In this document: in pieces, positions 3,001-15,362 of the stretch
Layout: every line of letters starts with the position of its first letter
Position numbering within the stretch: position 1 is the stretch's first letter
Assembly: GCA_001784285.1 (NCBI GenBank)
Contig: MFQC01000009.1
Coordinates: 8,828-72,827, forward strand
From: Candidatus Magasanikbacteria bacterium RIFCSPHIGHO2_02_FULL_48_18
GTDB taxonomy: Bacteria; Patescibacteriota; Patescibacteriia; Magasanikbacterales; UBA922
Length of the DNA stretch: 64,000 nt
Direction: 5' to 3'
Notes under the pieces: generated by a model
What the model saw: the letters and a program-made list of their open reading frames with translations, nothing else
Database searches by the model: none
What the model was told of the DNA's origin: nothing
Position numbers and translations under genes: made by a program

Positions 3001-4125
3001 GCCTTTTTCCAATCCTTTCCCCACCAACCACCGTCCGGCCGCGTACCCGCTCGCGATGGTTGCCACTTTCTTTCCAAAATCAAGGACTCCCCCGACAAAA
3101 CTGCCCCCGACAGCGCCAACTTTTTGGACCGCCGTGAGCCCGACAAACAAAAATGCGATAGCAATAAAAAAATTTGCCATGTTTTCCCACGTGGTCACTT
3201 CGCTTGAGGACACTTTGAGCGTGCCCCCGGGAACGCCTGCCTGCTGAAGCACTTTTTGCGCGTCCGAGCCGTCAATATTGAGTCCCAAATCCGACATGGC
3301 AACGTCGCCCGTTCCAAGCGTGGCAAACGCAAGCCAGAGAAAGAATACCGCGACCGGCGCCACAATCACTTCTTTACCAAACATGGACCACCATTCTTTT
3401 GCGTACTGTTTGGTTTGCGGAATAACGTTCATGATATACGCCATTGGCGACAAAATAATCAACACCCACAATACAATGACCCGGAGTATCATCACAAACA
3501 AATACGCGCCAACAACCGCAAGTCCCATGAGCGCAAAAACAAAGGCCATAACCGCGCCGCCAAAGAGTTTAATGTCAATGCCTCCGGTCATAATATCTTC
3601 ACCGACCACATTGAGAATCGAGTTCATGCGGAGCATTTCAATAAGGTTGCCCCCGGCCGTGTTTTGGATGGCCGTCACAAAGGTCATGGTAAAGATATGC
3701 GCGGCGTCAATAATAAGGCCGGCAATGAGTTTGCTGAAATTGACAAGAAGCGCCGCCAAGATAAAATGCGCAAGCGTTTTTTTCCATTCGTATTGTTCAA
3801 TACCAAGGACCGTGCCAAACGCGATAACAAGCAATACCACCACAAAAAACATATTGGCAACGTCGCGCACCATAAACCAGCCGATGACGACGGTCGGTGT
3901 GTCAACATAGCCATTATATTTTGCGAGTTCGACAAAAAATTTGAAGAAAAACATGGTCAAGCTCATGAGCACAGTGGCAAGCTCAATCAAAATCCACGAC
4001 GCAAAGTGCAAGAGCGCGTCAAAAACGCCGGTTGCGACATCACCCAGCAAATCAAAAATCGCGTTTGCCGGTGTGGCGGTGAAAACCAGCCCGGAGACAA
4101 CAAAAAATAAGAAGATCGGCGTCAT
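1..4125 (-). CDS. TrbL/VirB6-like polytopic membrane protein with long charged C-terminal tail (partial, runs off the left edge; at least 1375 aa)
   Basis: Absent from the ORF track, consistent with no in-window stop. Manual spot translation from ATG 4125 (alternative GTG 4176) is open at every point checked, including the window edge, and gives MTPIFLFFVVSGLVFTATPANA...GWFMVRDVANMFFVVVLLVIAFGTVLGIEQYEWKKTLAHFILAALLVNFSKLIAGLIID, a motif typical of Patescibacteria VirB6/TrbL-like proteins. The long + strand ORFs 172/964/1918/2734/3256 are its antisense shadows. Confidence 0.8.
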   Translation of the reverse strand, partial: MTPIFLFFVVSGLVFTATPANAIFDLLGDVATGVFDALLHFASWILIELATVLMSLTMFFFKFFVELAKYNGYVDTPTVVIGWFMVRDVANMFFVVVLLVIAFGTVLGIEQYEWKKTLAHFILAALLVNFSKLIAGLIIDAAHIFTMTFVTAIQNTAGGNLIEMLRMNSILNVVGEDIMTGGIDIKLFGGAVMAFVFALMGLAVVGAYLFVMILRVIVLWVLIILSPMAYIMNVIPQTKQYAKEWWSMFGKEVIVAPVAVFFLWLAFATLGTGDVAMSDLGLNIDGSDAQKVLQQAGVPGGTLKVSSSEVTTWENMANFFIAIAFLFVGLTAVQKVGAVGGSFVGGVLDFGKKVATIASGYAAGRWLVGKGLEKGKKSLMNAPFIGGRSWIRAGKRLDEFRRQNKYIRHIPLIGGYNEEYQDKLDDRVEAVKKQQKDSRAKDMSKNEPPLSLAGTALVNKVFGQIPILKRLGQVDYEWDDEKGDFKYEQERVEKKNADGTTAYEMRDKVDKDGNKIKQKKYVGIVGLDAMTARRNFAEYQEMAAIQMRSPENKKSREHRNRERLLKEGRQLVVAAEDHEFEGWMEKEHADEYQGYAALDDEGKKAFREKKRTTTVKQQKEVEEDAPSFIDEFRHTPEFVEDEDKKFRNWIKAKDPVQYNGYKEMNTLQQWEFKKQHLEEFRKDSMVAPEQTQQFERWLQKENAGAYVNYTAADEPGKTKLITDKQKKKVTKSVEVQKDLGSLDEEFAKDPEVSAEQLKQFGQWLEVEHPNEYKEYAALSSDKSRSGWMKFTQIGADQEVKVEDEFLADPEIVAQQNKQFDAWMQKKHGDEYHGYQGMDEAGKAEFKRRKQKKTIKDERGKEVVIDSDSRLEEFRSNPANVKAVGDTISGINHPERWKGSKRTWVPKRDEGVYSRASRNAAQYIVQHETNRVAEEKLKEAQSKATEAVWMGPLGKKLAEQLGEAEIGAKIGEDIVKGMKNAHLEKVFESSLDKFRKMKDKGNLDLWLLQGNDAASVFARAIQQAKFAEEHEENMAIVKGETQSEVEGTFIEAPAQGKATYAQSFVASAKRIAESLNRVDEAGRAEFGGAALMRLAFHREQARMQGKEGVSMDVQKHMYGMLSNLAENANLDDAINSMGQAIERYETDEEYRNGLSPAERDEFEATKRAFGPEGEFKMLERVLNSEQRFVGEDGKVLMVPDGKGGEREAASVDELLENNVHGIEHKEHLIENADGSVVTQEEFLNNKYGAMTAVKKGSYYDEQGIILRDAEGNAITQLSAGQQVLEGQGKIKKIKKDGFADKDGKIIRIEDPNKGKKDWQTASSVQELFAGQVVLKGAFLKGGKVLKDDRGENITSPEQVFDAAMKGIERKYLGFIG

Positions 4126-4315
4126 CCATTTTTTTGCTCGGAAGAGCGACGTTATTTTTTTTCCAACATGCTTCACAGCCAAGAAATCATGGAGTGATCA
4201 ATTGTGAAGAAGTATAGCATAAAAAAGAAAAAAAATGGAGAAAAAATCGTTATTTTGGGGATAGTATTTCATAAACACGTTATCCACTTTTTATCCTTGA
4301 CAAACCTTTGTCACC

Positions 4316-4344
4316 TTGACAAAACGGCTTTTTTGTGCTTTAAT
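4316..4344 (+). promoter_or_regulatory. sigma70-type promoter facing the tRNA-like array
   Basis: TTGACA(4316-4321)-17 nt-TTTAAT(4339-4344), preceded by an extended -10 TG. Confidence 0.45.
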
Positions 4345-4399
4345 AGAATTGGAGAATTGTGTTTATTTTTTCGCTTGAAAAAAGCAAAAAGCTCTTTAA

Positions 4400-4462
4400 A
4401 AAAACAAAAAGGCTTGCACACACAAGCCTCCTTCGGTGGTGGACCGTGGGGGAATTGAACCC
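4400..4462. repeat. 63-bp exact direct repeat A, copy 1 (terminator plus tRNA-like 3' end)
   Basis: Identical to 4735-4797; identity ends just beyond the T-loop. Confidence 0.95.
4401..4429 (-). terminator. intrinsic terminator downstream of tRNA-like RNA 1
   Basis: Minus strand AGGCTTG-TGTGTG-CAAGCCT followed by TTTTGTTTT. Confidence 0.8.
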
Positions 4463-4509
4463 CAAGAGTGAGGATGGTAAGCCTACTCGTGCACCTGCAC
4501 ACACGGCCC
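4437..4509 (-). tRNA. atypical tRNA-like RNA 1 (73 nt; anticodon ambiguous, TAC/Val or ACC/Gly; G3.U70)
   Basis: GGGCCGT GT GTGC-AGGT-GCAC GAGTAGG-CTTACCAT-CCTCACTC T TGGGG-TTCAATT-CCCCC ACGGTCC ACCA: 7-bp acceptor stem, 4-nt D-loop, 8-nt anticodon loop with a bulged stem, canonical T-loop, encoded CCA. Confidence 0.55.
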
Positions 4510-4525
4510 ATAGTCCACCAAAAAA

Positions 4526-4534
4526 AGTATACCA
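4526..4534 (-). promoter_or_regulatory. extended -10 promoter for tRNA-like RNA 1
   Basis: TG-G-TATACT, then 6 nt, then GGTGGAC leader; same spacing as in cassette 2. Confidence 0.55.
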
Positions 4535-4535
4535 T

Positions 4536-4577
4536 AAAAGAAAATCCTCAACAAAGAATTTATGTTGAGGACTTTCT
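4536..4577 (-). terminator. intrinsic terminator of sRNA 1
   Basis: AGAAAGTCCTCAACA-TAAATTCTT-TGTTGAGGATTTTCT-TTT. Confidence 0.7.
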
Positions 4578-4631
4578 CCGGGATTCACCCGACCGAATAT
4601 GCAGTTTTATACGAAGTAGGTTTACCATCCT
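4536..4631 (-). ncRNA. putative ~95-nt small RNA complementary to tRNA-like RNA 1
   Basis: Bounded by TTGACA-17-TATCCT and a 15-bp terminator hairpin. Its predicted 5' end AGGAUGGUAAACCUACU pairs 16/17 with the anticodon arm AGUAGGCUUACCAUCCU. Confidence 0.55.
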
Positions 4632-4637
4632 AAAACA

Positions 4638-4666
4638 AGGATACCCCATTTTAAAAACCCTGTCAA
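4638..4666 (-). promoter_or_regulatory. sigma70 promoter of sRNA 1
   Basis: TTGACA(4666-4661)-17 nt-TATCCT(4643-4638); the same -35/-10 pair occurs upstream of nusA. Confidence 0.65.
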
Positions 4667-4709
4667 GTGGAAAAATGATAGATCACTCCATCCAAACAAA
4701 CCAATTGAG

Positions 4710-4738
4710 ATAGAGTAATCCATCGTTCTTTCACAAAA
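4710..4738. repeat. 29-bp exact direct repeat B, copy 1
   Basis: ATAGAGTAATCCATCGTTCTTTCACAAAA, identical to 5017-5045. Confidence 0.95.
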
Positions 4739-4797
4739 ACAAAAAGGCTTGCACACACAAGCCTCCTTCGGTGGTGGACCGTGGGGGAATTGAACCC
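4735..4797. repeat. 63-bp exact direct repeat A, copy 2
   Basis: Identical to 4400-4462 (offset 335 bp); contains the terminator and 3' end of tRNA-like RNA 2. Confidence 0.95.
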
Positions 4798-4847
4798 GTT
4801 CCACTGTGTGTCAAGTACAGCATGCTCACCAGATACACTACTGGCCC
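4772..4847 (-). tRNA. atypical/chimeric tRNA-like RNA 2 (76 nt; probably GAC/Val, alternatively TGA; G3.U70)
   Basis: GGGCCAG TA GTGT-ATCTGGTGA-GCAT G CTGT-ACTTGACAC-ACAG TGGA ACGGG-TTCAATT-CCCCC ACGGTCC ACCA. U8, D-loop GG, T-loop and CCA are present. Acceptor pairs 6-7 and the two outer T-stem pairs are mismatched. Confidence 0.5.
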
Positions 4848-4866
4848 TTACTAGTCCACCAAATTT

Positions 4867-4875
4867 ATATTAACA
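4867..4875 (-). promoter_or_regulatory. extended -10 promoter for tRNA-like RNA 2
   Basis: TG-T-TAATAT, then 6 nt, then GGTGGAC leader. Confidence 0.5.
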
Positions 4876-4946
4876 TAAAAATCTCCCCGGAGGAAGATCT
4901 TTACGTTGACACACAGTTTCAACCAGTAGAAATCTAGTTGCTGTAC
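4876..4946 (-). ncRNA. putative ~70-nt small RNA complementary to tRNA-like RNA 2
   Basis: GUACAGCA-ACUAGAU-UU-CUACUGG-UUGAA-ACUGUGUGUCAA-CGUA followed by a terminator hairpin (AAAGATCTTCC-TCCG-GGGAGATTTTT). Each block complements part of tRNA-like RNA 2. Confidence 0.55.
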
Positions 4947-4952
4947 AAAAAT

Positions 4953-4982
4953 ACAATATCACATATCTGGAAACTTTGTCAA
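4953..4982 (-). promoter_or_regulatory. sigma70 promoter of sRNA 2
   Basis: TTGACA(4982-4977)-18 nt-TATTGT(4958-4953) with an extended -10 TG. Confidence 0.55.
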
Positions 4983-5016
4983 GCGAAAGCCCGATGGTTT
5001 ACCCGATTAAAATACA

Positions 5017-5045
5017 ATAGAGTAATCCATCGTTCTTTCACAAAA
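5017..5045. repeat. 29-bp exact direct repeat B, copy 2
   Basis: Identical to 4710-4738. Confidence 0.95.
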
Positions 5046-5194
5046 TGACAATTCTCTCCATAATGGACGAGAACTGTCTTACAAATACAGCGCGTGTGAG
5101 GCGGAAATTGCTCTGCTTCCGGAAATACCCGGGAGAGAGCCATGAAAGCCTAATAATATTGCGAACTCCTAAAAGCAACACGGCGCCTGCCGAA

Positions 5195-5246
5195 TGGAGC
5201 GGTTGGATGTGTCATCCTGATCAGAATGACATACCCAACTGCTCCA
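5195..5246. repeat. 52-bp imperfect inverted repeat centred on CTGATCAG
   Basis: TGGAGCGGTTGGATGTGTCAT...ATGACATACCCAACTGCTCCA. Confidence 0.8.
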
Positions 5247-5308
5247 CGGACAAGGCGAAACCGTGGGACCACAATGCCGCATCCAGGCGGCGAGACAGGA
5301 GGTGCCAC

Positions 5309-6043
5309 ATGGCACGTTTCATCGCCCTCGCCGCCACCCTGGCGGCGTGCTTCTTCCTCGCGTGCGAGGAGGAAGGGACTGGTCCCACCGACGGGACCAC
5401 TGCGACGACAACGGGCTCCGCCGCAGGCGAGCCCACCACCCCCAGCAACGACGGCAACGACTGCACCGACAACAACCCGTGCACCGAGGAGACGTGCGAC
5501 GGCGACGTTTGCACGACCCATACTGAGTCGTGCAACGACAACGGATGCACCGAGGAATGGTGCAACCAATGGGGGTGCTCCAGTTGCACCAACTGGAGCA
5601 GTGGCGCCTCGGGGTGCACAGGCACCCCGGGCGGCCCTACTGCCCCCATTGTCGACCCCGACCCCCCTGGCGACGACCCCGTCCCCCCGCCGGAGGTCGA
5701 CTGCTCGGCCTGGACAACTCTCCTTTCCGGCACGTTCTACGAGCCGGAGCTGATCGGGGAGTTCGAAGTCCCTGGTTTTATTCAGTACCTCGAACCGGAC
5801 TTCGAGGGGATCGTCGGCGCGGGCTACGGCCTGTGCCGGTCGTCTGTTGATGACGCAATCGGCGTCGTCGACAACGTGTGGGGTGTGCTCGATGGAGCAG
5901 GAAAGAACATCGCCTGTGGACCGTTCCCGGGCGATAGTGTGCTCCACTTCGAGCCGATCGACAGCGACTGCATCAAAATCGGAGGGACTGCCCTTACAAA
6001 CTGGAGCATCCCCAACGATTTTTTGATTGCATGCCGACTGTGA
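5309..6043 (+). CDS. GC-rich Cys-rich putative lipoprotein (244 aa)
   Basis: AGGAGG at 5297-5302 before ATG 5309; signal peptide with lipobox FFLAC; Thr/Gly linker; DCTDNNPCTEETC repeats; Pro-rich linker. Confidence 0.8.
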   Translation: MARFIALAATLAACFFLACEEEGTGPTDGTTATTTGSAAGEPTTPSNDGNDCTDNNPCTEETCDGDVCTTHTESCNDNGCTEEWCNQWGCSSCTNWSSGASGCTGTPGGPTAPIVDPDPPGDDPVPPPEVDCSAWTTLLSGTFYEPELIGEFEVPGFIQYLEPDFEGIVGAGYGLCRSSVDDAIGVVDNVWGVLDGAGKNIACGPFPGDSVLHFEPIDSDCIKIGGTALTNWSIPNDFLIACRL

Positions 6044-6326: not shown

Positions 6327-9300
6327 TTACTTCTGCTCCGGCACCACAATAATAACACCATGATAATAGGTCCATCGTTCTTTGTTATAATTATCCTCAC
6401 ACTCTTTATTTCCTCCGGCATTAAAATCATTATACAACCCCTCCTCACTCGGAATCATATCCTTATTCTTCCCGCCCGGAATCCATGCCGGGCCGCCGGT
6501 CGCGGAACTCTTTGACGCGTTGCACCAACCCCAGTTGTCAAGGACCTGTACCCGCGGGCGGTACGCGCACACTTTGGACGGTTCATAGCCAACCAAATCC
6601 ACGACGCCTTTTTTCTGCCACTCGGTGAGCGCGGAAAAATCCACATTCGCGCTTCCTGAAGAACATTCATACGTATACTCGGCCTTAAACGGCTTGTCGA
6701 CGCACGCGCGGTCGCTGTTGCCAAAGCGCGGTTTATTGTATGAATCAGTGTATGTTTGTTGGTACGATGGAAGATCTTTTTCCTTATAACACAAGAGGTC
6801 GTCAAATCCGAGAGCATGCGGACAATCGTCTTCTTTGTCGTACGCTTTGCAGGTCATAAGGTCGGGAAGCTGTTCTGAGCCGCCGCCCCAACACACCCCA
6901 ATATCGCCTTCGGAGAATTCGCAGAACGGTTTGTAGTTTTCGTAATACCCATGCGTTTTTTCGTTCGTAATATAACCGGTTGCCGAATCGTCCCAATCAA
7001 TCATAATGCGCCGGATGGGCATATGATTATCGTCGGCCGCGACAAAAAATTCGGCTGTGGCTTTGAACGTTTTTTGGGCTATATGCATGGTCGGTTCCGG
7101 CGCGTTGTTTGGCGCTTCGTCCGGATCATTATTGGGATCACGATCATAATTATACTTTGTGCCATTTTTTCCTGTAACAGTAAAATTGTGTTTGTCACCC
7201 GCAGTACATGGTCCATGTTCTCCATAACAACGGTATGGATTGAGCGAATAGACAACAGGCGGGCGATTATTGGTTGGTTTGTTATACTCTGATCCTTCAT
7301 CCCATGCCGTTTTACTCTCAAACTCATCCGGCTTCTCGCCCGTTTTGCGCATTTTTATAGAAAATGTTTTTGCAAACAATTGAGCGAGCCGACTCTTGCC
7401 AATATAATCCGGATCATAACTAGCATAATATGACCCAATGCCAAATTCCATATCACCGGGAATCGTTAAACCATCGCCCAAACTACTGCATCGGAAATCA
7501 TTGGTACCACTCCAATCCGGGATTGTTTGCCACATGTAATCCCATAAATAATCTGAACCACTTGGACCAATATTATCATCCGCCACGGGTTCGGCATTCA
7601 GTTCATTCGTACCCGCATAGATATTTTTTCCAAACAATTTTCCGCATGCGTATGGAACGCCCTGGTTATCATTAAAAGTATATTTGCGTAAGATACTATC
7701 GGTTTCCAAATCATCTTCAATTAAATCGAGAGACCCATATGGTGGATTTTCTGTTTCAAACCATTTTACCTCATCACTGAAAAATTTTGGTTCGCCTACA
7801 TCCCAGTGGGGTGATGGCGGATAAATTTGAGATGCCTGCCACACACGATTGGTCCACGCCTTATTCGTCGGTTGATCCGTATCAATCTTGGTGTCATCGT
7901 AGACGCTCGCAAATTCAGTACATCGGGGGTTGAGCTCAACCAGAACAGAGAGAAGCGCATGTCTTCCTACAGCATGATTTTTAACATCGTCATCATCATT
8001 TTTATATCTCTCGCTATATTTATACCACAAATTACCCCCGTCATAAGAGAGTTTTCCATCTCCATTATTGAATCGAATCATCCACACATTGTATGGCGCT
8101 TTCGCTTGTGTTTCTATAGGCACATTATACAAACTTTCTTCAATTATACTACGATATATTGTGTTTCCATCATCTTCTCCACTTTGGAAAATAGCGATAC
8201 CATAGACATGCTTTCCGTCATTAGAATCCCCTGTATACGCATCTTTGTTTATTCCAAAAAATTGCACAGCCTGAAATTTCTTTGTTTTGCCGAGAGCAAA
8301 TTCTTTCACACTAAAAGCATACGTTTCATCTTTTGGCGCATCCTCATGAAGAGGAGACTGGGGATTGTCTATTTTCATTGCTTGGAGATTTTCAAAATCT
8401 ATTTCAAGCCCTGGATAAAAATGAGGTAAATTGAGTTCATTATAAGCACCCGGATCTCCTGCCAACATCATCGGGCCCATATGAAATTTCTTGACATCTT
8501 GTTCATACAGATCCCCCTGCATTCGATAATCCTTGCCAAAGGTACCAATAATATACTTGGCAATAGGAGTCTTTCCTTTTCCATCTTCATCCCAAGCCTT
8601 TGTCTCTTCTACGTCGGTATATATATAACCGGAAGCATCCGTGACCGGAATTTTTTCGCTCAGCATGGACCACCAGCCCGGGCTGTCAATCCATAATACT
8701 TCCGTATTGGGACTTCCTTTCCCATCGTTAATGCCATGCCAACCATACAATTTCATAAACGTATATATTTTTTTCTGGTACGCTAAAGACTGCAATTTCA
8801 AATCGCTTCCGAGCTCGCCGGTAGTCGCCCCCTTTGGAATATTCATGGGTGGGAGATCGGCGATATTATCATATTGCGTACCGCCATCTGACCACCATGT
8901 AACCCAAAGAGGAGGCGCATTCAAAAGTGAAGTCCAGCGCTCATCGCCAGTATCCCCCGCAAGATCGTCTATTTCTGGACCCAAAATATCTTCCAATTCA
9001 ATATATACCGGAGCATCGCTATCATCATAGGTAAGAGAATTAGAATGAAAAATTTTATAATACATATCCTTTGAATAAGTTAACCCAGAGCTAGGATAAG
9101 CATAATTTATTGCTTTCAACATTTCGACACCACTCAACACCATACTTTGGTTATAGGCCGGCGCGGCGGCGGCGACCGTGCAATACACCTGGCCCTTGCC
9201 ATTATTGGAATCCAATGCCACATCATAGCCGGTTGTCGGATCGTTGTTATAAATATCAACACCGGTCACATTGACGTCCAACGGCAACCATGTTTGACAT

Positions 9301-12300
9301 GCATAGAGGCCGGTGCCACCTCCCAATGGGCGGCTGAGATCGCGCTCCAGACAAAAACCGCTTGTTCCCACGTGCATGGATTTGTTGGTATAAGGCGATT
9401 CTTTGCAAATCAATCCGTCGCCGCACTGACCGTCGTCGGTTTGGCATGGCTTGCCTATATTTCCCGCGTCTTCCACTTCGCCCGACCCCGAAAGGCCCGA
9501 ATCCGCCGGCAATTGACACGTTCTCGGACCGTGGCTTGCTTGCCCGAGCGGCCAATACCCAACATTGCCATCCGCATATTCGTTAACGAGATAACTGCAC
9601 GAACAGTCGCCCTTTTGGCAGATATTCGCTTTGTCGTATCCTTCTATTTTTTGCGTATATAATTTGAAAAACGAAGGCGACGGCGTGTTTCCTTCCACGT
9701 CTTTTTGTAGATCTTTTGCAAAATTGACCGGAAACGGACTGTCTTCTTCCGGATAGACTTTACAGCTTGCCGGGATAAGATCATCCTTGGTAAATTCATC
9801 CTTTTCACCCAAGCCCGAAATTGGGTAGACGCATTCGCCGCTGTAACACTTTCCTTTGCTGTCCTCGCCGCATAAGGCTCCATCATTTTTCGGCACTACA
9901 TTGCCAGAGACTGTTTTAAAACAAGAACTTTGATCCGGATTGGACGACGAATCGGCATAAAATTTGTACGCGAGGTAGCTGGTTTTCCCGGTCGTGCCGC
10001 TGTCAATGCCAATATAGGTAAAATCATTGATTTGGTATCGGTTAAAAAGCGAGTAGCCCGTATACTCCGGATCGCCATACCACGTCGTGTCGCGGGCAAT
10101 GTATTTTTCTTCAGTCAAAAACTTGGACTCATGCGGGTAATCGCTCTGTTCCACCCAATCCACGCAATCTTTGCCATCTCGTTCGGTGCATGCCCGATAA
10201 TCTTCGCACACGTCAAGCGTCAGTCCCGTTTCTTGCTGTTGTTTTGTCTGCGACGACCGGCAGGCCAGCCACTCGGCGCATACGCGATCGCGATTCACTT
10301 TCAAAATGATATTGCTGTCCCCGCCGGACACGCTACTTGCTTGTTTTGGCGAGACCAAATTGTCATTATTTTTTTCGCTGTCCGTATACGTCGCCTGGGC
10401 AAGATACGGACGGGTTGACTCGTCCACCTTATTCAACAACACGCACCCTTCTTTTAAGCTCACCTTGCCGCCGCATTCGTCAATACGATTGGTAATAGTA
10501 CTGTTGAAAATAACGGGATATGGGGTGCCGTTCGGATATTTGGCCGTTTTGTCAACCGGATCAACCAACTCGGTACAGCCATTAAATTGTTCCGGGCACT
10601 GCCCCACCAATCCATCATATTGAAATGCGCCATTGGAATAAATACCAAACGATGTGTCGGCAAGAATATACCCCGGATAACACGGAATTTTATTTTTATT
10701 TTGGCACATGCCGGAAGCGCATTCTTGATCGGCAGTACACAATGATCCGTTGGTACATTCGCCCACATCTTTCTTTACCCACCCGGAACGGGTAATACCG
10801 GTCTTGTCGACAAAAGACTCCTGATAGACGCATTGCGCGTTGCCATTTTTGAGCGGATCTTTAAAGAAAGACACCGTGTTTCCGGAATTGAACTGGCCGC
10901 ATCCGAGCAAATCCTCGCGGCACAGCACGCCTTCCGGACCAAGATATTTGTCCGGATTGTTTTTGATGTACTCTTTCTCAAAAGAATATGATCCCGCCGC
11001 AGTAAACCCGTCCGGGACCGCCTGTTCGCGCAATGCGATTTTTTCACATCCCAAAAATGCCTGATCGCACACGGTATTTTTGGTTTTGGTAAGGAAAATG
11101 GGGTCGTTTTCGGGCGTATCCGCGCCAATCAGCACGCTCGAATCATCCACAAACAAAATATCCGGCGAGGTATTGGTGCTGTTTTGTTGCACGGCAAGAA
11201 ATGTCACAAACGGCTGCAACTCAAATTTCCCAAAAGAATACGTTGCATCGGGCAATGCTATGGGGCCGGGAATATAACATATTTTTGAACCGGTTGGAGG
11301 CGTGCAGGTATGGTTGGCTCCATTCAAATTAACCGTGCAGGTATTCCCAGACGAGGTATTTTTATAGCACGCAATGTTGTAGACGATCCGGTCTTCCGCG
11401 CCATCCATGGCAATGGTATTTTGGGTGTCATATAGCGCGGTACATCCGACTGCTTCTGGCCGGCAGAGCGACGCAAAACCGGTCGCGTACCACAGCGTAT
11501 TTTGCGTATCCGTGTACATTTGACATCCCAACGCTTCGCCCGGCAACCCGTCGGTCGGGTCGCTGTCGCACGCTATAGGCGCGTTTGCACTCACCAATCC
11601 GCCCTCATACTCTATCGTGCGTTGCCATGAATTTTTGATAAGATGATATTGATCCACGAGACGCGTCAGGCGCACATTGTCCAGAAAATATCCTCCCGGT
11701 GTACCTTCGCGTTTGAATACCAAAGAAACCGGATCGGTTGTGTTGCCGGTAAATTGAACAGGACCGATATGATACAATTGCCAGGACTCCTGGAGCTCGA
11801 TTTTATTTTCCTTGTTCAAGAGAGGATCAAAGGTAAAATACCAGCTCGTCTCTGTCTTGCCATTTTGCGACAAGTTGATGGACAATTGTTGCCCCGCGAC
11901 GCCGCGCGCCCAGAACGAAAGCTCGTACCAATTGGCGGCATCCTCTGCATTGCCGCTTTGGATGGTTCCGGTTGCAATGATCCGTTCCACTTTTTCGGTA
12001 TTGACCAATAACGAATACAGCCCGACTTGGATAGATTCGGCCGCGACGGAAATGCTTCCGGCGGCGATATCGACTTTTTTCCAATCTTTTTTGGCATCGT
12101 TCAGGGCGTTTGCGTCGTCTCCGGACGGTTCAAAAATATCAAGAAATACCTGTTCGACATTGTTTCCCGAATTGCCTACATACAAACGGCACCCGCTGGC
12201 TTCTTTGGGACAAGCATTTGCCTGGCCGGGCGTATTGATGGTGTTATACACGCACGATCCTCCGGAGGCCGGATTATTTTCGTCGGGTTTGTATGCTCCG

Positions 12301-15300
12301 CCGTTCGCGCACACCATACAGCTCGCGGTACTCTCTGCCCACAATCCTTTTCGTTCGGCGCACAATTGTTTGGACGTATCGAGCGACAAAAGATCGTCTT
12401 TGACCAAGGTTACACTGGTTTTGCGCAATGGATGGCACAATTCATCGACCAGCGCGACCTCCGACAATACGCGATAAAACACCTGCCCGCTTTTATCATA
12501 GAGCGCACGACAATCAAGGCTTGCCGCGTCAATACTCCCGGGATTATTCACTAATATGCTATAGGTATCTTCATTGCACACGGCCTGTAAATTTTTGAGC
12601 GCCATATAACTCGTGTCCGCGTACGCGGGGGATCCTTTCGGGTAAGCGGCCGTGAGCGCATTTTTTACCACTGTATCTGTGACTAAATCAAACATCTTCG
12701 TGAGATACGAATTTTTGGTATCGTCGATCTGGAGCAGGCGATGCGTCCGCAAGACATACCCCTTCTGCACCGACCCTTCCCACGAATAAAATATTTTTTC
12801 ATTATCATCGGCCGGTTTTTCACAATAGGTGAGATCCGTGTAATATTCCAAACCTTCGCCGCCTTTTTCCACAGTATCGATATTGGTAAATTCATCACAG
12901 CCTTCATACGCAACCGTACAGGAGAGTCCCTGTTCTTTCATGAGATCTTGCGCGTATGTCGGCACAAAATACAATGGAAATTGCGCCCCCTCAAAATTGG
13001 TCTCCGCTTGCTTGTACGCGTCATACCCGACACAGCTCAGATCGCACTGATTATTTCCAATAAGCGCGGGAACCGCAGGTCCGCCCGCAAGCGGGGTATA
13101 GGCATCGCACCCAACTTCTTCGGCAACGCACGCTCCCGCAAAGTTGCCGCATTCGGGATTGCCGGAAAGAAAATTCAAATCCGCTTTTTTCTTTGGGTAT
13201 TCAATCGCCTCGGTTCCCGCATTGGTATCATAACATCCCAAATAGTCCGGCGCTTTTTTGAGATACAGGGTATTCTCCGGGCTCGTATCTTTCACATACG
13301 CGTTTGCCGCCGCGTCGAATACGCGAGGATAAAAGGCCGAACAGCCCTCATTGTCTCCGGTACACGTTTGCGAAGCGATTTTTGCATTGAAATAAAGTGT
13401 TGGATTTCTCCCCGCTTTTTTATACTCTTTCCATATTCCCGAATCGAGCATGCCCGGATATACCCATGCTTCATTGACCTGTTCCGCCCCATACGCGGAA
13501 CACCCCACGGATTGGGCCGAACACTCCCCGTACTCAAGCGTTCGCGTGAGGTAGGATGACACTGTGTTCGTTCCCGCGTTGACAAATGTTTGACAGGAAG
13601 TAAATGGCAAAGGACACGAATCTCCCGGTATTCTCCAGGTATTTTCTTCCTTTGTGCAGTATCCATAGAGTTGCGGCGCCTCGCACACGCTGTTTGGCCC
13701 TTCTGAAATGCATGTAGAAAAATCAAGACATTCTTCCATGCGCTTTGCGCCATCGCTCGTCAGCAATTGATCGCTATACCCATAGGCCATACAGCGGGTT
13801 TCCGGAACTCGAATCACCCAGTTCGGATCAATAAGATGACAATATGGATATTCCGCGCTCGGCGCTCCGCTTGGGTGGCACTGATCAAATCCTTTGACAA
13901 CCTCTTCAAGCTTCCATGGGTTGTCGGACGGCGACTTGAGCGCGGCAATTTCAAACCCAATGGGAAGAATGCGCGCTTTTCGTATTTTTTGGATATTGGA
14001 ATAACAATAGGCCTCGCGGAAACAATTGCGGTCCCGATTTTGCAATTCTCGTTTGGGAGAAATCAACTCCCAGTCGCCATGCAAAAACGACCCTTTCGTG
14101 TCAGCGAGCGCTTCGCCAATGGTCATGGCCCGGCCGGTCTTTGCCTGCGCGATGGCGTTTGCAAGCCCTTGTTCCATGACACAATTATTGATGCCAACCG
14201 GAGTATTGCCCTCCGGACACGCGGTAAATTGCTGAACGATATTAAAATTTTCTATCTGAACAGGCGTCTTGGTCAATAAAAAGCCAAAGACCTGTTGTGC
14301 AATGCTCTTTTTACTTGCTCCGCTTGGCGATTGGGAATACGGGTTGACCACCGAATCCGGATTTGCCGCGTCTTCTCCTCCTCCGCCTGAGGAAGGAAAC
14401 AATCCTCCGGTCAATAATTGCTCCAACAACTGCGTCGTCAAGGTATTCAAAAATACCGACGCGGCATACGGAAGTATTTGAATGGTTGGCGCGGCGTAAA
14501 TAGCACTAATCTGCCCGGCAGTAATTTCTTTTGATTTCAATCCAGTCAATTCCTTCGATTCTTCTTTGACCAGTTGTGCCGGTGAAATAGTTGTTCCGGA
14601 AATAAGTTCTTTCACTGCCTTAAAGCCGTCTCCTTCCATCCGCTCTTGGAGAGCGCCCAATTCCTGCTGGAAACTTTTCTGCCGCACCTGGCCCAAAGCG
14701 CCGAGCGAAACTCCAAAATCCGTACTGTCCGCGTTGAGAGAGGCGCTAAATGATTCGGCAATAAATTTTTGTCCGTAGGGACCGAATTTTTCTTCAAACG
14801 CTTCCGGGCTATACGCATTTTTGAGATCTTGCCAGGAACAATCCAGCCCTCCACCCATAAATTTTTGACTTAATCCCAACTGCAGACTGATTTGCAACGC
14901 TAAATTTGGCTGACAAATATCTATCCCAAATGCTTTTTCCCCCAACGTCTGGATGGATTGCGCGGCGGCATCAAGCGCCACATTTTCAAAATAGGTGGCC
15001 GCCCCTTCCTGAAAGACCAACGGCTCTTCGCCAGCCGCTTTGGTGGAAAGCCATGTCGCGGCGTCGTACGCCAACTTATTTAAAAAATAGGATACACCTT
15101 CAATGAGGGCGCTTAATCCCCCAGCAAGGAGACTCTGCCACATGTTGAAATCCAATTTTTTTTCCGCTTTTTCGGCCAGCGCTCTGGCTTCATTTCTGGC
15201 TTGAATGGCTTCGCGTTGGGCAGTCGCAGGCGCGTCAGTCCATTGTGCAAAGACCATTGTCGGAAAAAAAGAAAAAAGAAAAAGACAGAGACAAAAAATT

Positions 15301-15362
15301 GGCTTCATTTTTGAAGAAAAAAAATGGAAATAATGTTGTTTTCTTGAAAAGAAAGGAATCAT
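6327..15362 (-). CDS. giant (3011 aa) secreted Cys-rich surface protein with a carbohydrate-binding-like module
   Basis: Long ORF; N-terminal signal peptide; helical N-terminal region; many Cys-rich modules; WYELSFWARG...YFLDNVRL resembles a galactose-binding/CBM4-9-like fold. Confidence 0.85.
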   Translation of the reverse strand: MIPFFSRKQHYFHFFSSKMKPIFCLCLFLFSFFPTMVFAQWTDAPATAQREAIQARNEARALAEKAEKKLDFNMWQSLLAGGLSALIEGVSYFLNKLAYDAATWLSTKAAGEEPLVFQEGAATYFENVALDAAAQSIQTLGEKAFGIDICQPNLALQISLQLGLSQKFMGGGLDCSWQDLKNAYSPEAFEEKFGPYGQKFIAESFSASLNADSTDFGVSLGALGQVRQKSFQQELGALQERMEGDGFKAVKELISGTTISPAQLVKEESKELTGLKSKEITAGQISAIYAAPTIQILPYAASVFLNTLTTQLLEQLLTGGLFPSSGGGGEDAANPDSVVNPYSQSPSGASKKSIAQQVFGFLLTKTPVQIENFNIVQQFTACPEGNTPVGINNCVMEQGLANAIAQAKTGRAMTIGEALADTKGSFLHGDWELISPKRELQNRDRNCFREAYCYSNIQKIRKARILPIGFEIAALKSPSDNPWKLEEVVKGFDQCHPSGAPSAEYPYCHLIDPNWVIRVPETRCMAYGYSDQLLTSDGAKRMEECLDFSTCISEGPNSVCEAPQLYGYCTKEENTWRIPGDSCPLPFTSCQTFVNAGTNTVSSYLTRTLEYGECSAQSVGCSAYGAEQVNEAWVYPGMLDSGIWKEYKKAGRNPTLYFNAKIASQTCTGDNEGCSAFYPRVFDAAANAYVKDTSPENTLYLKKAPDYLGCYDTNAGTEAIEYPKKKADLNFLSGNPECGNFAGACVAEEVGCDAYTPLAGGPAVPALIGNNQCDLSCVGYDAYKQAETNFEGAQFPLYFVPTYAQDLMKEQGLSCTVAYEGCDEFTNIDTVEKGGEGLEYYTDLTYCEKPADDNEKIFYSWEGSVQKGYVLRTHRLLQIDDTKNSYLTKMFDLVTDTVVKNALTAAYPKGSPAYADTSYMALKNLQAVCNEDTYSILVNNPGSIDAASLDCRALYDKSGQVFYRVLSEVALVDELCHPLRKTSVTLVKDDLLSLDTSKQLCAERKGLWAESTASCMVCANGGAYKPDENNPASGGSCVYNTINTPGQANACPKEASGCRLYVGNSGNNVEQVFLDIFEPSGDDANALNDAKKDWKKVDIAAGSISVAAESIQVGLYSLLVNTEKVERIIATGTIQSGNAEDAANWYELSFWARGVAGQQLSINLSQNGKTETSWYFTFDPLLNKENKIELQESWQLYHIGPVQFTGNTTDPVSLVFKREGTPGGYFLDNVRLTRLVDQYHLIKNSWQRTIEYEGGLVSANAPIACDSDPTDGLPGEALGCQMYTDTQNTLWYATGFASLCRPEAVGCTALYDTQNTIAMDGAEDRIVYNIACYKNTSSGNTCTVNLNGANHTCTPPTGSKICYIPGPIALPDATYSFGKFELQPFVTFLAVQQNSTNTSPDILFVDDSSVLIGADTPENDPIFLTKTKNTVCDQAFLGCEKIALREQAVPDGFTAAGSYSFEKEYIKNNPDKYLGPEGVLCREDLLGCGQFNSGNTVSFFKDPLKNGNAQCVYQESFVDKTGITRSGWVKKDVGECTNGSLCTADQECASGMCQNKNKIPCYPGYILADTSFGIYSNGAFQYDGLVGQCPEQFNGCTELVDPVDKTAKYPNGTPYPVIFNSTITNRIDECGGKVSLKEGCVLLNKVDESTRPYLAQATYTDSEKNNDNLVSPKQASSVSGGDSNIILKVNRDRVCAEWLACRSSQTKQQQETGLTLDVCEDYRACTERDGKDCVDWVEQSDYPHESKFLTEEKYIARDTTWYGDPEYTGYSLFNRYQINDFTYIGIDSGTTGKTSYLAYKFYADSSSNPDQSSCFKTVSGNVVPKNDGALCGEDSKGKCYSGECVYPISGLGEKDEFTKDDLIPASCKVYPEEDSPFPVNFAKDLQKDVEGNTPSPSFFKLYTQKIEGYDKANICQKGDCSCSYLVNEYADGNVGYWPLGQASHGPRTCQLPADSGLSGSGEVEDAGNIGKPCQTDDGQCGDGLICKESPYTNKSMHVGTSGFCLERDLSRPLGGGTGLYACQTWLPLDVNVTGVDIYNNDPTTGYDVALDSNNGKGQVYCTVAAAAPAYNQSMVLSGVEMLKAINYAYPSSGLTYSKDMYYKIFHSNSLTYDDSDAPVYIELEDILGPEIDDLAGDTGDERWTSLLNAPPLWVTWWSDGGTQYDNIADLPPMNIPKGATTGELGSDLKLQSLAYQKKIYTFMKLYGWHGINDGKGSPNTEVLWIDSPGWWSMLSEKIPVTDASGYIYTDVEETKAWDEDGKGKTPIAKYIIGTFGKDYRMQGDLYEQDVKKFHMGPMMLAGDPGAYNELNLPHFYPGLEIDFENLQAMKIDNPQSPLHEDAPKDETYAFSVKEFALGKTKKFQAVQFFGINKDAYTGDSNDGKHVYGIAIFQSGEDDGNTIYRSIIEESLYNVPIETQAKAPYNVWMIRFNNGDGKLSYDGGNLWYKYSERYKNDDDDVKNHAVGRHALLSVLVELNPRCTEFASVYDDTKIDTDQPTNKAWTNRVWQASQIYPPSPHWDVGEPKFFSDEVKWFETENPPYGSLDLIEDDLETDSILRKYTFNDNQGVPYACGKLFGKNIYAGTNELNAEPVADDNIGPSGSDYLWDYMWQTIPDWSGTNDFRCSSLGDGLTIPGDMEFGIGSYYASYDPDYIGKSRLAQLFAKTFSIKMRKTGEKPDEFESKTAWDEGSEYNKPTNNRPPVVYSLNPYRCYGEHGPCTAGDKHNFTVTGKNGTKYNYDRDPNNDPDEAPNNAPEPTMHIAQKTFKATAEFFVAADDNHMPIRRIMIDWDDSATGYITNEKTHGYYENYKPFCEFSEGDIGVCWGGGSEQLPDLMTCKAYDKEDDCPHALGFDDLLCYKEKDLPSYQQTYTDSYNKPRFGNSDRACVDKPFKAEYTYECSSGSANVDFSALTEWQKKGVVDLVGYEPSKVCAYRPRVQVLDNWGWCNASKSSATGGPAWIPGGKNKDMIPSEEGLYNDFNAGGNKECEDNYNKERWTYYHGVIIVVPEQK

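Follow-up and report, generated by a model that had tools for sequence, protein, structure and literature searches.

The locus raises a simple question: why should a tRNA-like gene be preceded by a small RNA gene that reads as its own antisense, with the parts in exchanged order? It lies in a window of 64,000 nt, the whole stretch of DNA that was analysed, and comprises the sRNA 2 gene, a promoter-sRNA-terminator unit at 4946–4876 on the minus strand, and the adjoining gene of tRNA-like RNA 2 (4847–4772). A second unit of the same plan is found at 4666–4406, also on the minus strand. In each unit the elements succeed one another on one strand as promoter, sRNA, terminator, −10 element, anti-CCA leader, tRNA-like gene and terminator (Table 1), a layout of two separate predicted promoter-terminator units per cassette. 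The terminator-like hairpin of sRNA 2 was absent from the output of a simple terminator scan.

Table 1. Features of the two units and of the repeats around them (positions in the window).
Feature	Position	Strand	Remarks
Predicted sigma-70 promoter of sRNA 2	4953–4982	−	TTGACA, 18 nt, TG-extended TATTGT
sRNA 2 antisense core	4906–4946	−	segments A and B around a GAA linker
sRNA 2 segment A	4946–4921	−	pairs with tRNA index 33 to 2
sRNA 2 segment B	4917–4906	−	pairs with tRNA index 45 to 34, anticodon included
Terminator-like hairpin and U tract, sRNA 2 3′ end	4877–4902	−	fold z −4.0; 0 of 200 shuffles as stable
Predicted extended −10 of the tRNA-like RNA 2 gene	4867–4875	−	TG-T-TAATAT, from sequence
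RNA 2 5′ leader, UGGUGGAC	4854–4861	−	complementary to the tRNA 3′ GUCCACCA end
tRNA-like RNA 2	4772–4847	−	G1:C72, G2:C71, G3.U70, A73, encoded CCA
RNA 2 anticodon UGA	4813–4811	−	with C37 and A31.C39
RNA 2 terminator	4741–4768	−	within the 68-nt repeat 4730–4797 common to unit 1
29-bp direct repeat, copy 1	4710–4738		flanks unit 2; copies 100% identical
29-bp direct repeat, copy 2	5017–5045		flanks unit 2; beside the GC-rich lipoprotein ORF
Predicted sRNA 1 promoter	4638–4666	−	TTGACA, 17 nt, TATCCT
sRNA 1	4538–4631 (terminator 4577–4539)	−	antisense to RNA 1, begins across the anticodon loop
RNA 1 extended −10 and anti-CCA leader	4513–4534 (−10 at 4534–4526; leader 4520–4513)	−	
tRNA-like RNA 1	4437–4509	−	intact 8/4 cloverleaf, G3.U70, tetraloop D arm; fold z −3.1
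RNA 1 anticodon loop	within 4437–4509	−	8 nt, CUUACCAU; RNA 1 has no long variable arm
RNA 1 terminator	4406–4433	−	

The original prediction described sRNA 2 as a mosaic of five blocks complementary to tRNA-like RNA 2. The words on which it was based are all present on the plus strand, namely TTGACACACAGT at 4906–4917, TTCAA at 4918–4922, CCAGTAG at 4923–4929, ATCTAGT at 4932–4938 and TGCTGTAC at 4939–4946. As these words are sense to the minus-strand gene at 4847–4772, a minus-strand RNA starting at 4946 is antisense to tRNA-like RNA 2. Exact blocks of at least 5 nt cover 32 nt, a figure reached by none of 2000 dinucleotide shuffles (mean 13.2, maximum 28), and an exact block of 12 nt occurred in one shuffle of 2000.

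The same permuted complementarity was sought at tRNA-like genes of other genomes, as had been suggested. It is present in the homologs, whose lack of it would have spoken against the prediction. In total 41 distinct cassettes were found, six of them in this genome (1.1 Mb; contigs C4, C8, C9 with two and C11 with two) and the rest mostly in other Patescibacteria. Each consists of an alanine-acceptor tRNA with a non-alanine anticodon or an enlarged anticodon loop, together with its own sRNA, and all 41 have two RNA units, with predicted transcription, and no conserved ORF. Before three cassettes from outside the class were added, removal of duplicates had left 38 distinct RNAs, of which 28 are of the plain 7/5 type, the class of RNA 2, and 10 have an 8/4 acceptor-T branch, RNA 1 included. 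The search patterns demanded an alanine acceptor, which is therefore not independent evidence in the homologs.

Scans with the leader pattern yielded 9 loci in genomes, 1 in viruses and 11 in metagenomes, and these split cleanly into loci that combine a non-alanine anticodon with an sRNA and ordinary tRNA-Ala genes that lack an sRNA and have their leader by chance. Leader-free patterns added six further cassettes in five carrier genomes. Applied to the order, they matched in 19 of 240 genomes; one match was an ordinary tRNA-Ala, leaving 18 true carriers of 240 and a patchy distribution. A scan of the phylum (401 genomes) gave three more cassettes outside the class, while the strict 8/4 pattern, run on 401 genomes of the class, matched in this genome alone. 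Two carriers are labelled otherwise: a 0.9-Mb MAG with the unverified label Gammaproteobacteria (L016) and a ‘bacterium’ (L014). A blastn search against phages and plasmids gave no match, viral scans with the leader pattern found ordinary tRNA-Ala genes only, and none of 208 distinct alanine-acceptor-like sequences on viral contigs had an sRNA partner among the matches listed. Three matches from the phylum (L076, L081, L082) were dropped because they are not tRNA-like, and a BLAST match on contig C1 proved to be coding sequence. Two other kinds of locus were seen. L083 (G405:C1:74245–74327), possibly representing a third structural class, has an alanine acceptor but is atypical in its D and anticodon region; the sRNA downstream of it shows an exact match of 14 nt. 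Five loci (L013, L017, L023, L024, L029) hold an ordinary CPR-type tRNA-Ala with a chance-looking anti-CCA leader and no sRNA; their leaders continue into longer inverted repeats of the flanks and into incomplete tRNA copies downstream.

Each of the 38 non-alanine RNAs has a permuted antisense on its own strand no more than 250 nt away, with scores of 38.5–58.5, compared to 24.5–34.5 at 15 ordinary tRNA-Ala genes, none of which has an sRNA partner. The split is imperfect, as two of the host's 44 ordinary tRNAs (Thr at 43 and Arg at 38.5) attain the lowest cassette score. Upstream of the sRNA, a hexamer that agrees with TTGACA at five or more of its six positions was seen in 36 of 38 cassettes. 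The tRNA has a −10-like hexamer of its own in 37 of 38 (extended in 26), compared to 6 and 2 of the 15 ordinary tRNA-Ala genes, and a GGTGG leader precedes it in 27 of the 30 cassettes found without requiring one and at none of 6 ordinary tRNA-Ala genes. Four of the 41 cassettes (L006, L019, L075, L083) have the sRNA downstream of the tRNA, served by its own promoter and terminator; this arrangement speaks for action in trans.

The homologs also refine the description of the pairing. The block order is indeed a circular permutation (tRNA nt 33 to 2, then 45 to 34), and the break differs from that of sRNA 1 as proposed: it falls at the anticodon in the 7/5 class, at 32/33–33/34 and thus at the 5′ edge of the anticodon, and at about 39–42, just 3′ of the loop, in the 8/4 class. 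The block assigned to the T-loop (TTCAA) is a chance match, a 5-nt T-loop complement being present in 6 of 38 sRNAs and in 14% of shuffles, and the linkers of homologous sRNAs differ in sequence. In sRNA 2 the UU extends the acceptor helix by pairing with G3 and G2 as G.U, and the linker consists of GAA. Thus, the complementarity holds but the mosaic of five blocks resolves into two collinear segments, with 24 + 12 of 41 nt paired. They span about nt 2–46 of the tRNA, i.e., the acceptor 5′ strand, the D arm and the anticodon arm. The sRNA had also been proposed to wrap around the tRNA-like RNA and open it; specific pairing of a kind that would open it is strongly supported by covariation in 38–41 cassettes, but the predicted pairing spares the T arm.

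We evaluated specificity with sRNAs that were defined solely by promoter position. The cognate tRNA ranked first for 37 of 41 sRNAs, second for three and third for one, with a mean duplex energy of −51.8 kcal/mol for cognate pairs vs. −25.8 kcal/mol, and the permuted order beat the collinear one in 38 of 41 cassettes. When the six cassettes here were compared with one another, the most stable duplex was the cognate one in 6 of 6 rows, and paralogs in one genome are mutually specific. The two helices of sRNA 2 have energies of −32.1 and −19.3 kcal/mol on RNA 2 and −11.3 and −2.5 on RNA 1; opening would cost about 10 kcal/mol for sRNA 2 and 17–19 for RNA 2, the helices being scored singly because the joint ring is beyond folding tools. 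Scored against the genome's other 45 ARAGORN tRNAs, sRNA 2 reached −29.1 at best, compared to −51.4 on its partner. In segment B of the 7/5 class, facing tRNA positions 34–44, 294 of 308 cells are Watson-Crick pairs (row shuffles: mean 162, maximum 197, in a set whose kin are not independent and whose tRNAs have a median identity of about 68%). Two to four pair types occur in 10 of the 11 columns, and position 38 is invariant. Antisense matches on the opposite strand score 25.5–41; the sRNA and the tRNA lie on the same strand and do not overlap. The excess of G.U over A.C (95:27 in cassettes) was discarded as proof of the strand, since controls show it too (50:23). From these sequence comparisons we conclude that a selected, cassette-specific antisense pairing is nearly certain.

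tRNA-like RNA 2 itself is a hybrid. Its 5′ part is of the 7/5 type, with the first 10 nt the same as in host tRNA-Ala(UGC), and its last 26 nt and terminator are those of RNA 1 (the 68-nt repeat), so that it forms only 5 of 7 acceptor pairs and 3 of 5 T-stem pairs. It is the only one of 38 RNAs with both stems broken. Its score against the Rfam tRNA model (RF00005), 21.8 bits, is under the cut-off of 29, and ARAGORN calls it tRNA-Ser(UGA). The sRNA 2 is intact although its partner is damaged, and an intact equivalent of RNA 2 is found at G000:C8:166889–166964. An assembly chimera could be ruled out as the origin of the hybrid, because the junction lies inside unbroken contigs of three sequencing runs that cover 4768–5400 with zero differing letters (no single piece covers the whole locus, and the runs may include the source sample). 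Thus, RNA 2 is a real recombinant, and probably a weakened one. The exact 26-nt 3′ end of RNA 2 had no match in the collection of genome contigs. Two observations concern the source population. In the three runs the depth between the two 68-nt repeats (4433–4764) was above that of the flanks (13.5–17.5 vs. 8.5–12.7), possibly reflecting copy-number variation. Same-sample contigs from a search with 4100–5400 match a tRNA-like stretch and then diverge into other leaders or terminators, so that co-occurring organisms probably carry further cassettes.

Could the intact RNAs work as tRNAs? In the 7/5 class all 28 members retain the invariants U8, G18G19, G53, A58 and C61, the variable region has 4–5 nt (it is short in the 8/4 class as well), and intact homologs score 37.7–62.4 bits against the Rfam tRNA model, above its cut-off; the 8/4 copies were not among the matches. 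The RNAs lack the tag reading frame and the body of a tmRNA, the genes being 73–77 nt long and none called tmRNA by ARAGORN. The program likewise left uncalled a tmRNA-like 3′ end near 23054 of contig G000:C11 (minus strand), in a genome without a called tmRNA. G3.U70 is the main determinant recognized by AlaRS. In the cassettes G3.U70 and A73 are combined with the anticodons UGA (16), GCG (6), UGG (4) or GCA (2), and in the other ten with loops of 8–9 nt, so that identity and anticodon clash. AlaRS, RNase P RNA and RNase III are encoded in the genome.

The anticodon loops are fully canonical in the GCG and GCA classes (8 of 28), and these members should be missense readers. All 16 UGA members show a pyrimidine at 37 and a 31.39 mismatch, compared to 0 and 1 of 44 host tRNAs, and share the pattern U33-UNNN-A with the 8–9-nt loops of the 8/4 class. 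Both kinds of loop may decode poorly or not at all; for the UGA members this may mean weak reading of Ser codons, frameshifting or no decoding. The host keeps an ordinary tRNA-Ser(UGA) and tRNA-Arg(GCG), which rules out reassignment of these codons. Allo-tRNAs offer a comparison: those with G3:U70 inserted alanine in Escherichia coli, missense allo-tRNAs with serine identity killed it, and several irregular tRNAs failed to translate (Mukai et al., 2017; PMC5389517). tRNA-ProX was toxic in E. coli, and the toxicity of mistranslation depended on the codon (PMC10404621). Substitution of alanine for serine may be only mildly harmful.

The predicted folds suggest a reason for the permutation. Segments A and B complement the two strands of the anticodon stem, and the free sRNA would therefore fold as a hairpin; at least three of the expected outer pairs were predicted in 23 of 28 sRNAs of the 7/5 class. 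In the same class the bases opposite tRNA 34–38 have a mean predicted unpaired probability of 0.79 (above 0.6 in 28 of 28), compared to 0.31 for adjacent bases. In sRNAs of the 8/4 class the anti-loop forms the 5′ end, with a predicted unpaired probability of 0.48–0.95, and segment B overlaps the 5′ arm of the terminator. We infer that the permutation would leave a toehold where the hairpin is open and enable a four-way strand exchange. Such an exposed anti-anticodon toehold would account for the permutation, as it would be trapped in a loop if the antisense were collinear. In 29 of 38 modelled precursors, pairing of the leader with the tRNA 3′ end beat the acceptor stem; displacement of the acceptor stem by the leader would free the strand bound by the sRNA.

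Taken together, we consider the cassette to be probably an all-RNA toxin-antitoxin system, with a miscoding alanine-type tRNA as the putative toxin and the antisense sRNA as the antitoxin. The tRNA would accept alanine and then misread codons, and the sRNA would bind and unfold it: the toehold would dock on the anticodon loop, and both strands of the anticodon stem would swap partners by branch migration. The leader would slow maturation by RNase P, allowing the sRNA to capture the precursor, possibly for cleavage by RNase III. After loss of the genes or a shut-off of transcription the sRNA would decay, and the mature tRNA, now free, would put alanine at Ser, Arg, Cys or Pro codons or shift the frame, leading to growth arrest. 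A more elaborate version is quite possible, though we would not call it probable. It is that of a new RNA-only addiction or abortive module, in which a code-corrupting tRNA (Ala missense in members with canonical loops; +1 frameshifting via the four-base anticodons of U33-UNNN-A in those with enlarged loops) would be paired with an anti-tRNA whose permutation makes the toehold for four-way exchange, giving dozens of orthogonal tRNA off-switches.

Regulated and useful mistranslation is another way to read the same parts: the sRNA would be a rheostat that releases a little miscoding tRNA for diversity of proteins, e.g., at the surface, or for stress tolerance. In this genome 6 of 6 cassettes lie within 1.5 kb of a 600-nt window with a GC content of 66% or more (in the genome as a whole, 2.7% of windows reach 60%), and several neighbours encode Cys-repeat proteins, as would fit this proposal; tRNA-ProX also increased the carbenicillin tolerance of E. 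coli (PMC10404621). We nevertheless hold it to be unlikely, for the loci have no evident regulator or condition-specific promoter, and the patchy presence of the cassettes, their many mutually specific paralogs per genome and their insertion between varied core genes fit selfish modules better.

If the tRNA-shaped RNA did not decode at all, it could be an antisense regulator, or a decoy baiting anticodon nucleases, EF-Tu or AlaRS, with the sRNA as a sponge. The abnormal anticodon loops would agree with this. So would a known precedent, the C4 RNA, which has a cloverleaf-like shape and nearby targets. This antisense RNA of phages P1 and P7 is processed by RNase P (PMC11143913). Unlike C4, however, intact cassette copies carry CCA and alanine identity and are scored as genuine tRNAs, and it is apparently the tRNA that is targeted. 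As Rfam gave no C4 match, the invariants and the CCA are conserved and the GCG and GCA classes are canonical, we rate a non-decoding RNA as less likely still than useful mistranslation.

The miscoding tRNA might also be an effector against the host cell of an episymbiont, with the sRNA providing self-immunity. Alanine identity is valid across bacteria and the genome is of the CPR type, but no conserved export or packaging partner was found at the loci, and simple toxin-antitoxin behaviour accounts for the same data, making this very improbable. A T-box-like attenuator in cis, in which the upstream RNA would be a leader that binds the tRNA through its codon and a UGGN motif and controls read-through, would make sense of the codon presented by segment B, of the UGGU in the leader and of the overlap of segment B with the terminator in the 8/4 class. 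It is extremely improbable given the four downstream sRNAs with their own promoter and terminator, the separate −10 of the tRNA and the absence of a T-box match in Rfam. Finally, a DNA-level relic of an inverted duplication, or mere chance with no function at the RNA level, is scarcely credible: a tandem inverted copy of nt 1–46 with a trimmed middle would yield the same permutation, and may be how the antisense arose, but duplication does not suffice as an explanation when covariation is maintained across such divergent tRNAs, spacing to promoter and terminator is fixed, the breakpoint is constant in each class, and nothing similar accompanies ordinary tRNA-Ala genes or, among the matches listed, the 208 viral look-alikes.

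How does a toxin-antitoxin cassette of this kind compare with known systems? The literature searched (partly top matches, and few subscription journals) described no tRNA that has an antisense partner of its own, no natural antisense RNA reserved for a single tRNA and no toxin-antitoxin system with a tRNA as toxin. As proposed here, the cassettes would resemble hok/sok and CopA/CopT in having an unstable antisense RNA, a toxin precursor kept inert by 5′-3′ pairing and multi-helix pairing initiated at a toehold. They differ in that the toxin of type I systems is a peptide and that in those systems and in CopA/CopT the antisense RNA comes from the opposite strand and is hence collinear. The cassettes would operate in the manner of type VIII systems (CreTA, SdsR-RyeA), which have an RNA toxin and an RNA antitoxin within 200 bp (TADB 3.0; PMC10767807). 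SdsR and RyeA overlap on opposite strands (PMC10767807). In CreTA, according to published abstracts, CreA represses transcription via a Cas effector and CreT sequesters host tRNAs. In contrast, the predicted toxin of the cassettes is a tRNA itself, they have no protein partner, and their RNAs are permuted, on the same strand and non-overlapping. The hallmark of CreTA, a CRISPR-repeat-like antitoxin beside a cas operon, is not seen, as no Cas family was found among 103 flanking ORFs (within about 1.5 kb) and there was no Rfam match.

Among irregular tRNAs, the allo-tRNAs (8/4, 9/3) come closest. They have a 12-bp acceptor-T branch in the 8/4 form, a tetraloop D arm and a mismatch of identity and anticodon, including G3:U70 with GCG, they are toxic or missense in E. 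coli, and they often lie near toxin-antitoxin genes (Mukai et al., 2017; PMC5389517). By the same account they have a long variable arm, which is lacking in the cassette tRNAs, 28 of 38 of which are plain 7/5, and their hosts are Clostridia, Proteobacteria and Acidobacteria; the main text does not contain ‘antisense’ or ‘complementary’, nor one supplement spreadsheet ‘antisense’ (PMC5389517). tRNA-ProX of Streptomyces and Kitasatospora is likewise a natural tRNA with the identity of one amino acid and the anticodon of another; its identity is proline, it has a dedicated ProRSx, and no mention is made of an antisense partner (PMC10404621). A partner RNA would explain how genomes can carry toxic tRNAs with mismatched identity and anticodon, a question that is open for allo-tRNAs and tRNA-ProX. 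The cassette pair occupies less than 250 bp and would depend on universal enzymes alone. As annotation tools call its tRNAs tRNA-Ser or tRNA-Arg or miss them, such cassettes are hidden in plain sight. Orthogonal tRNA off-switches, and possibly natural quadruplet-decoding tRNAs, would be of use in engineering the genetic code.

Finally, we looked at the surroundings of the cassettes. No protein family is common to the 36 loci. The neighbours include core genes, protein toxin-antitoxin genes at 5 of 36 loci and Cys-repeat proteins at five (raw counts, without a background rate). GC-rich ORFs flank the six cassettes here and several elsewhere (L019, L020, L040, L061), and C11 and G084 have alternating gene-cassette-gene arrays with such ORFs. 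Beside unit 2 the ORF at 5312–6043 is GC-rich (63–64%), Cys-repeat and lipoprotein-like, with no Pfam match. A Cys-rich giant protein of 3011 aa is encoded at 6327–15362 (minus strand), and on the other side of the locus a long ORF with many hydrophobic stretches runs from 4125 leftwards (minus strand) off the end of the window, with no Pfam match in 1000 aa. An imperfect 24-nt inverted repeat (79%) at 4985–5039 lies directly upstream of the sRNA 2 promoter and overlaps copy 2 of the 29-bp direct repeat, and a promoter-like TTGACA-17-TTTAAT from 4318 on the plus strand could transcribe both units in antisense. BoxA-like antitermination words are seen at 4391–4400, 4725–4735 and 5032–5042 on the plus strand, opposite to the cassettes. 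They directly follow each tRNA terminator and precede the GC-rich ORF, similar words follow the genome's other cassettes, and the motif is slightly enriched genome-wide (53 matches vs. 35 for the control).
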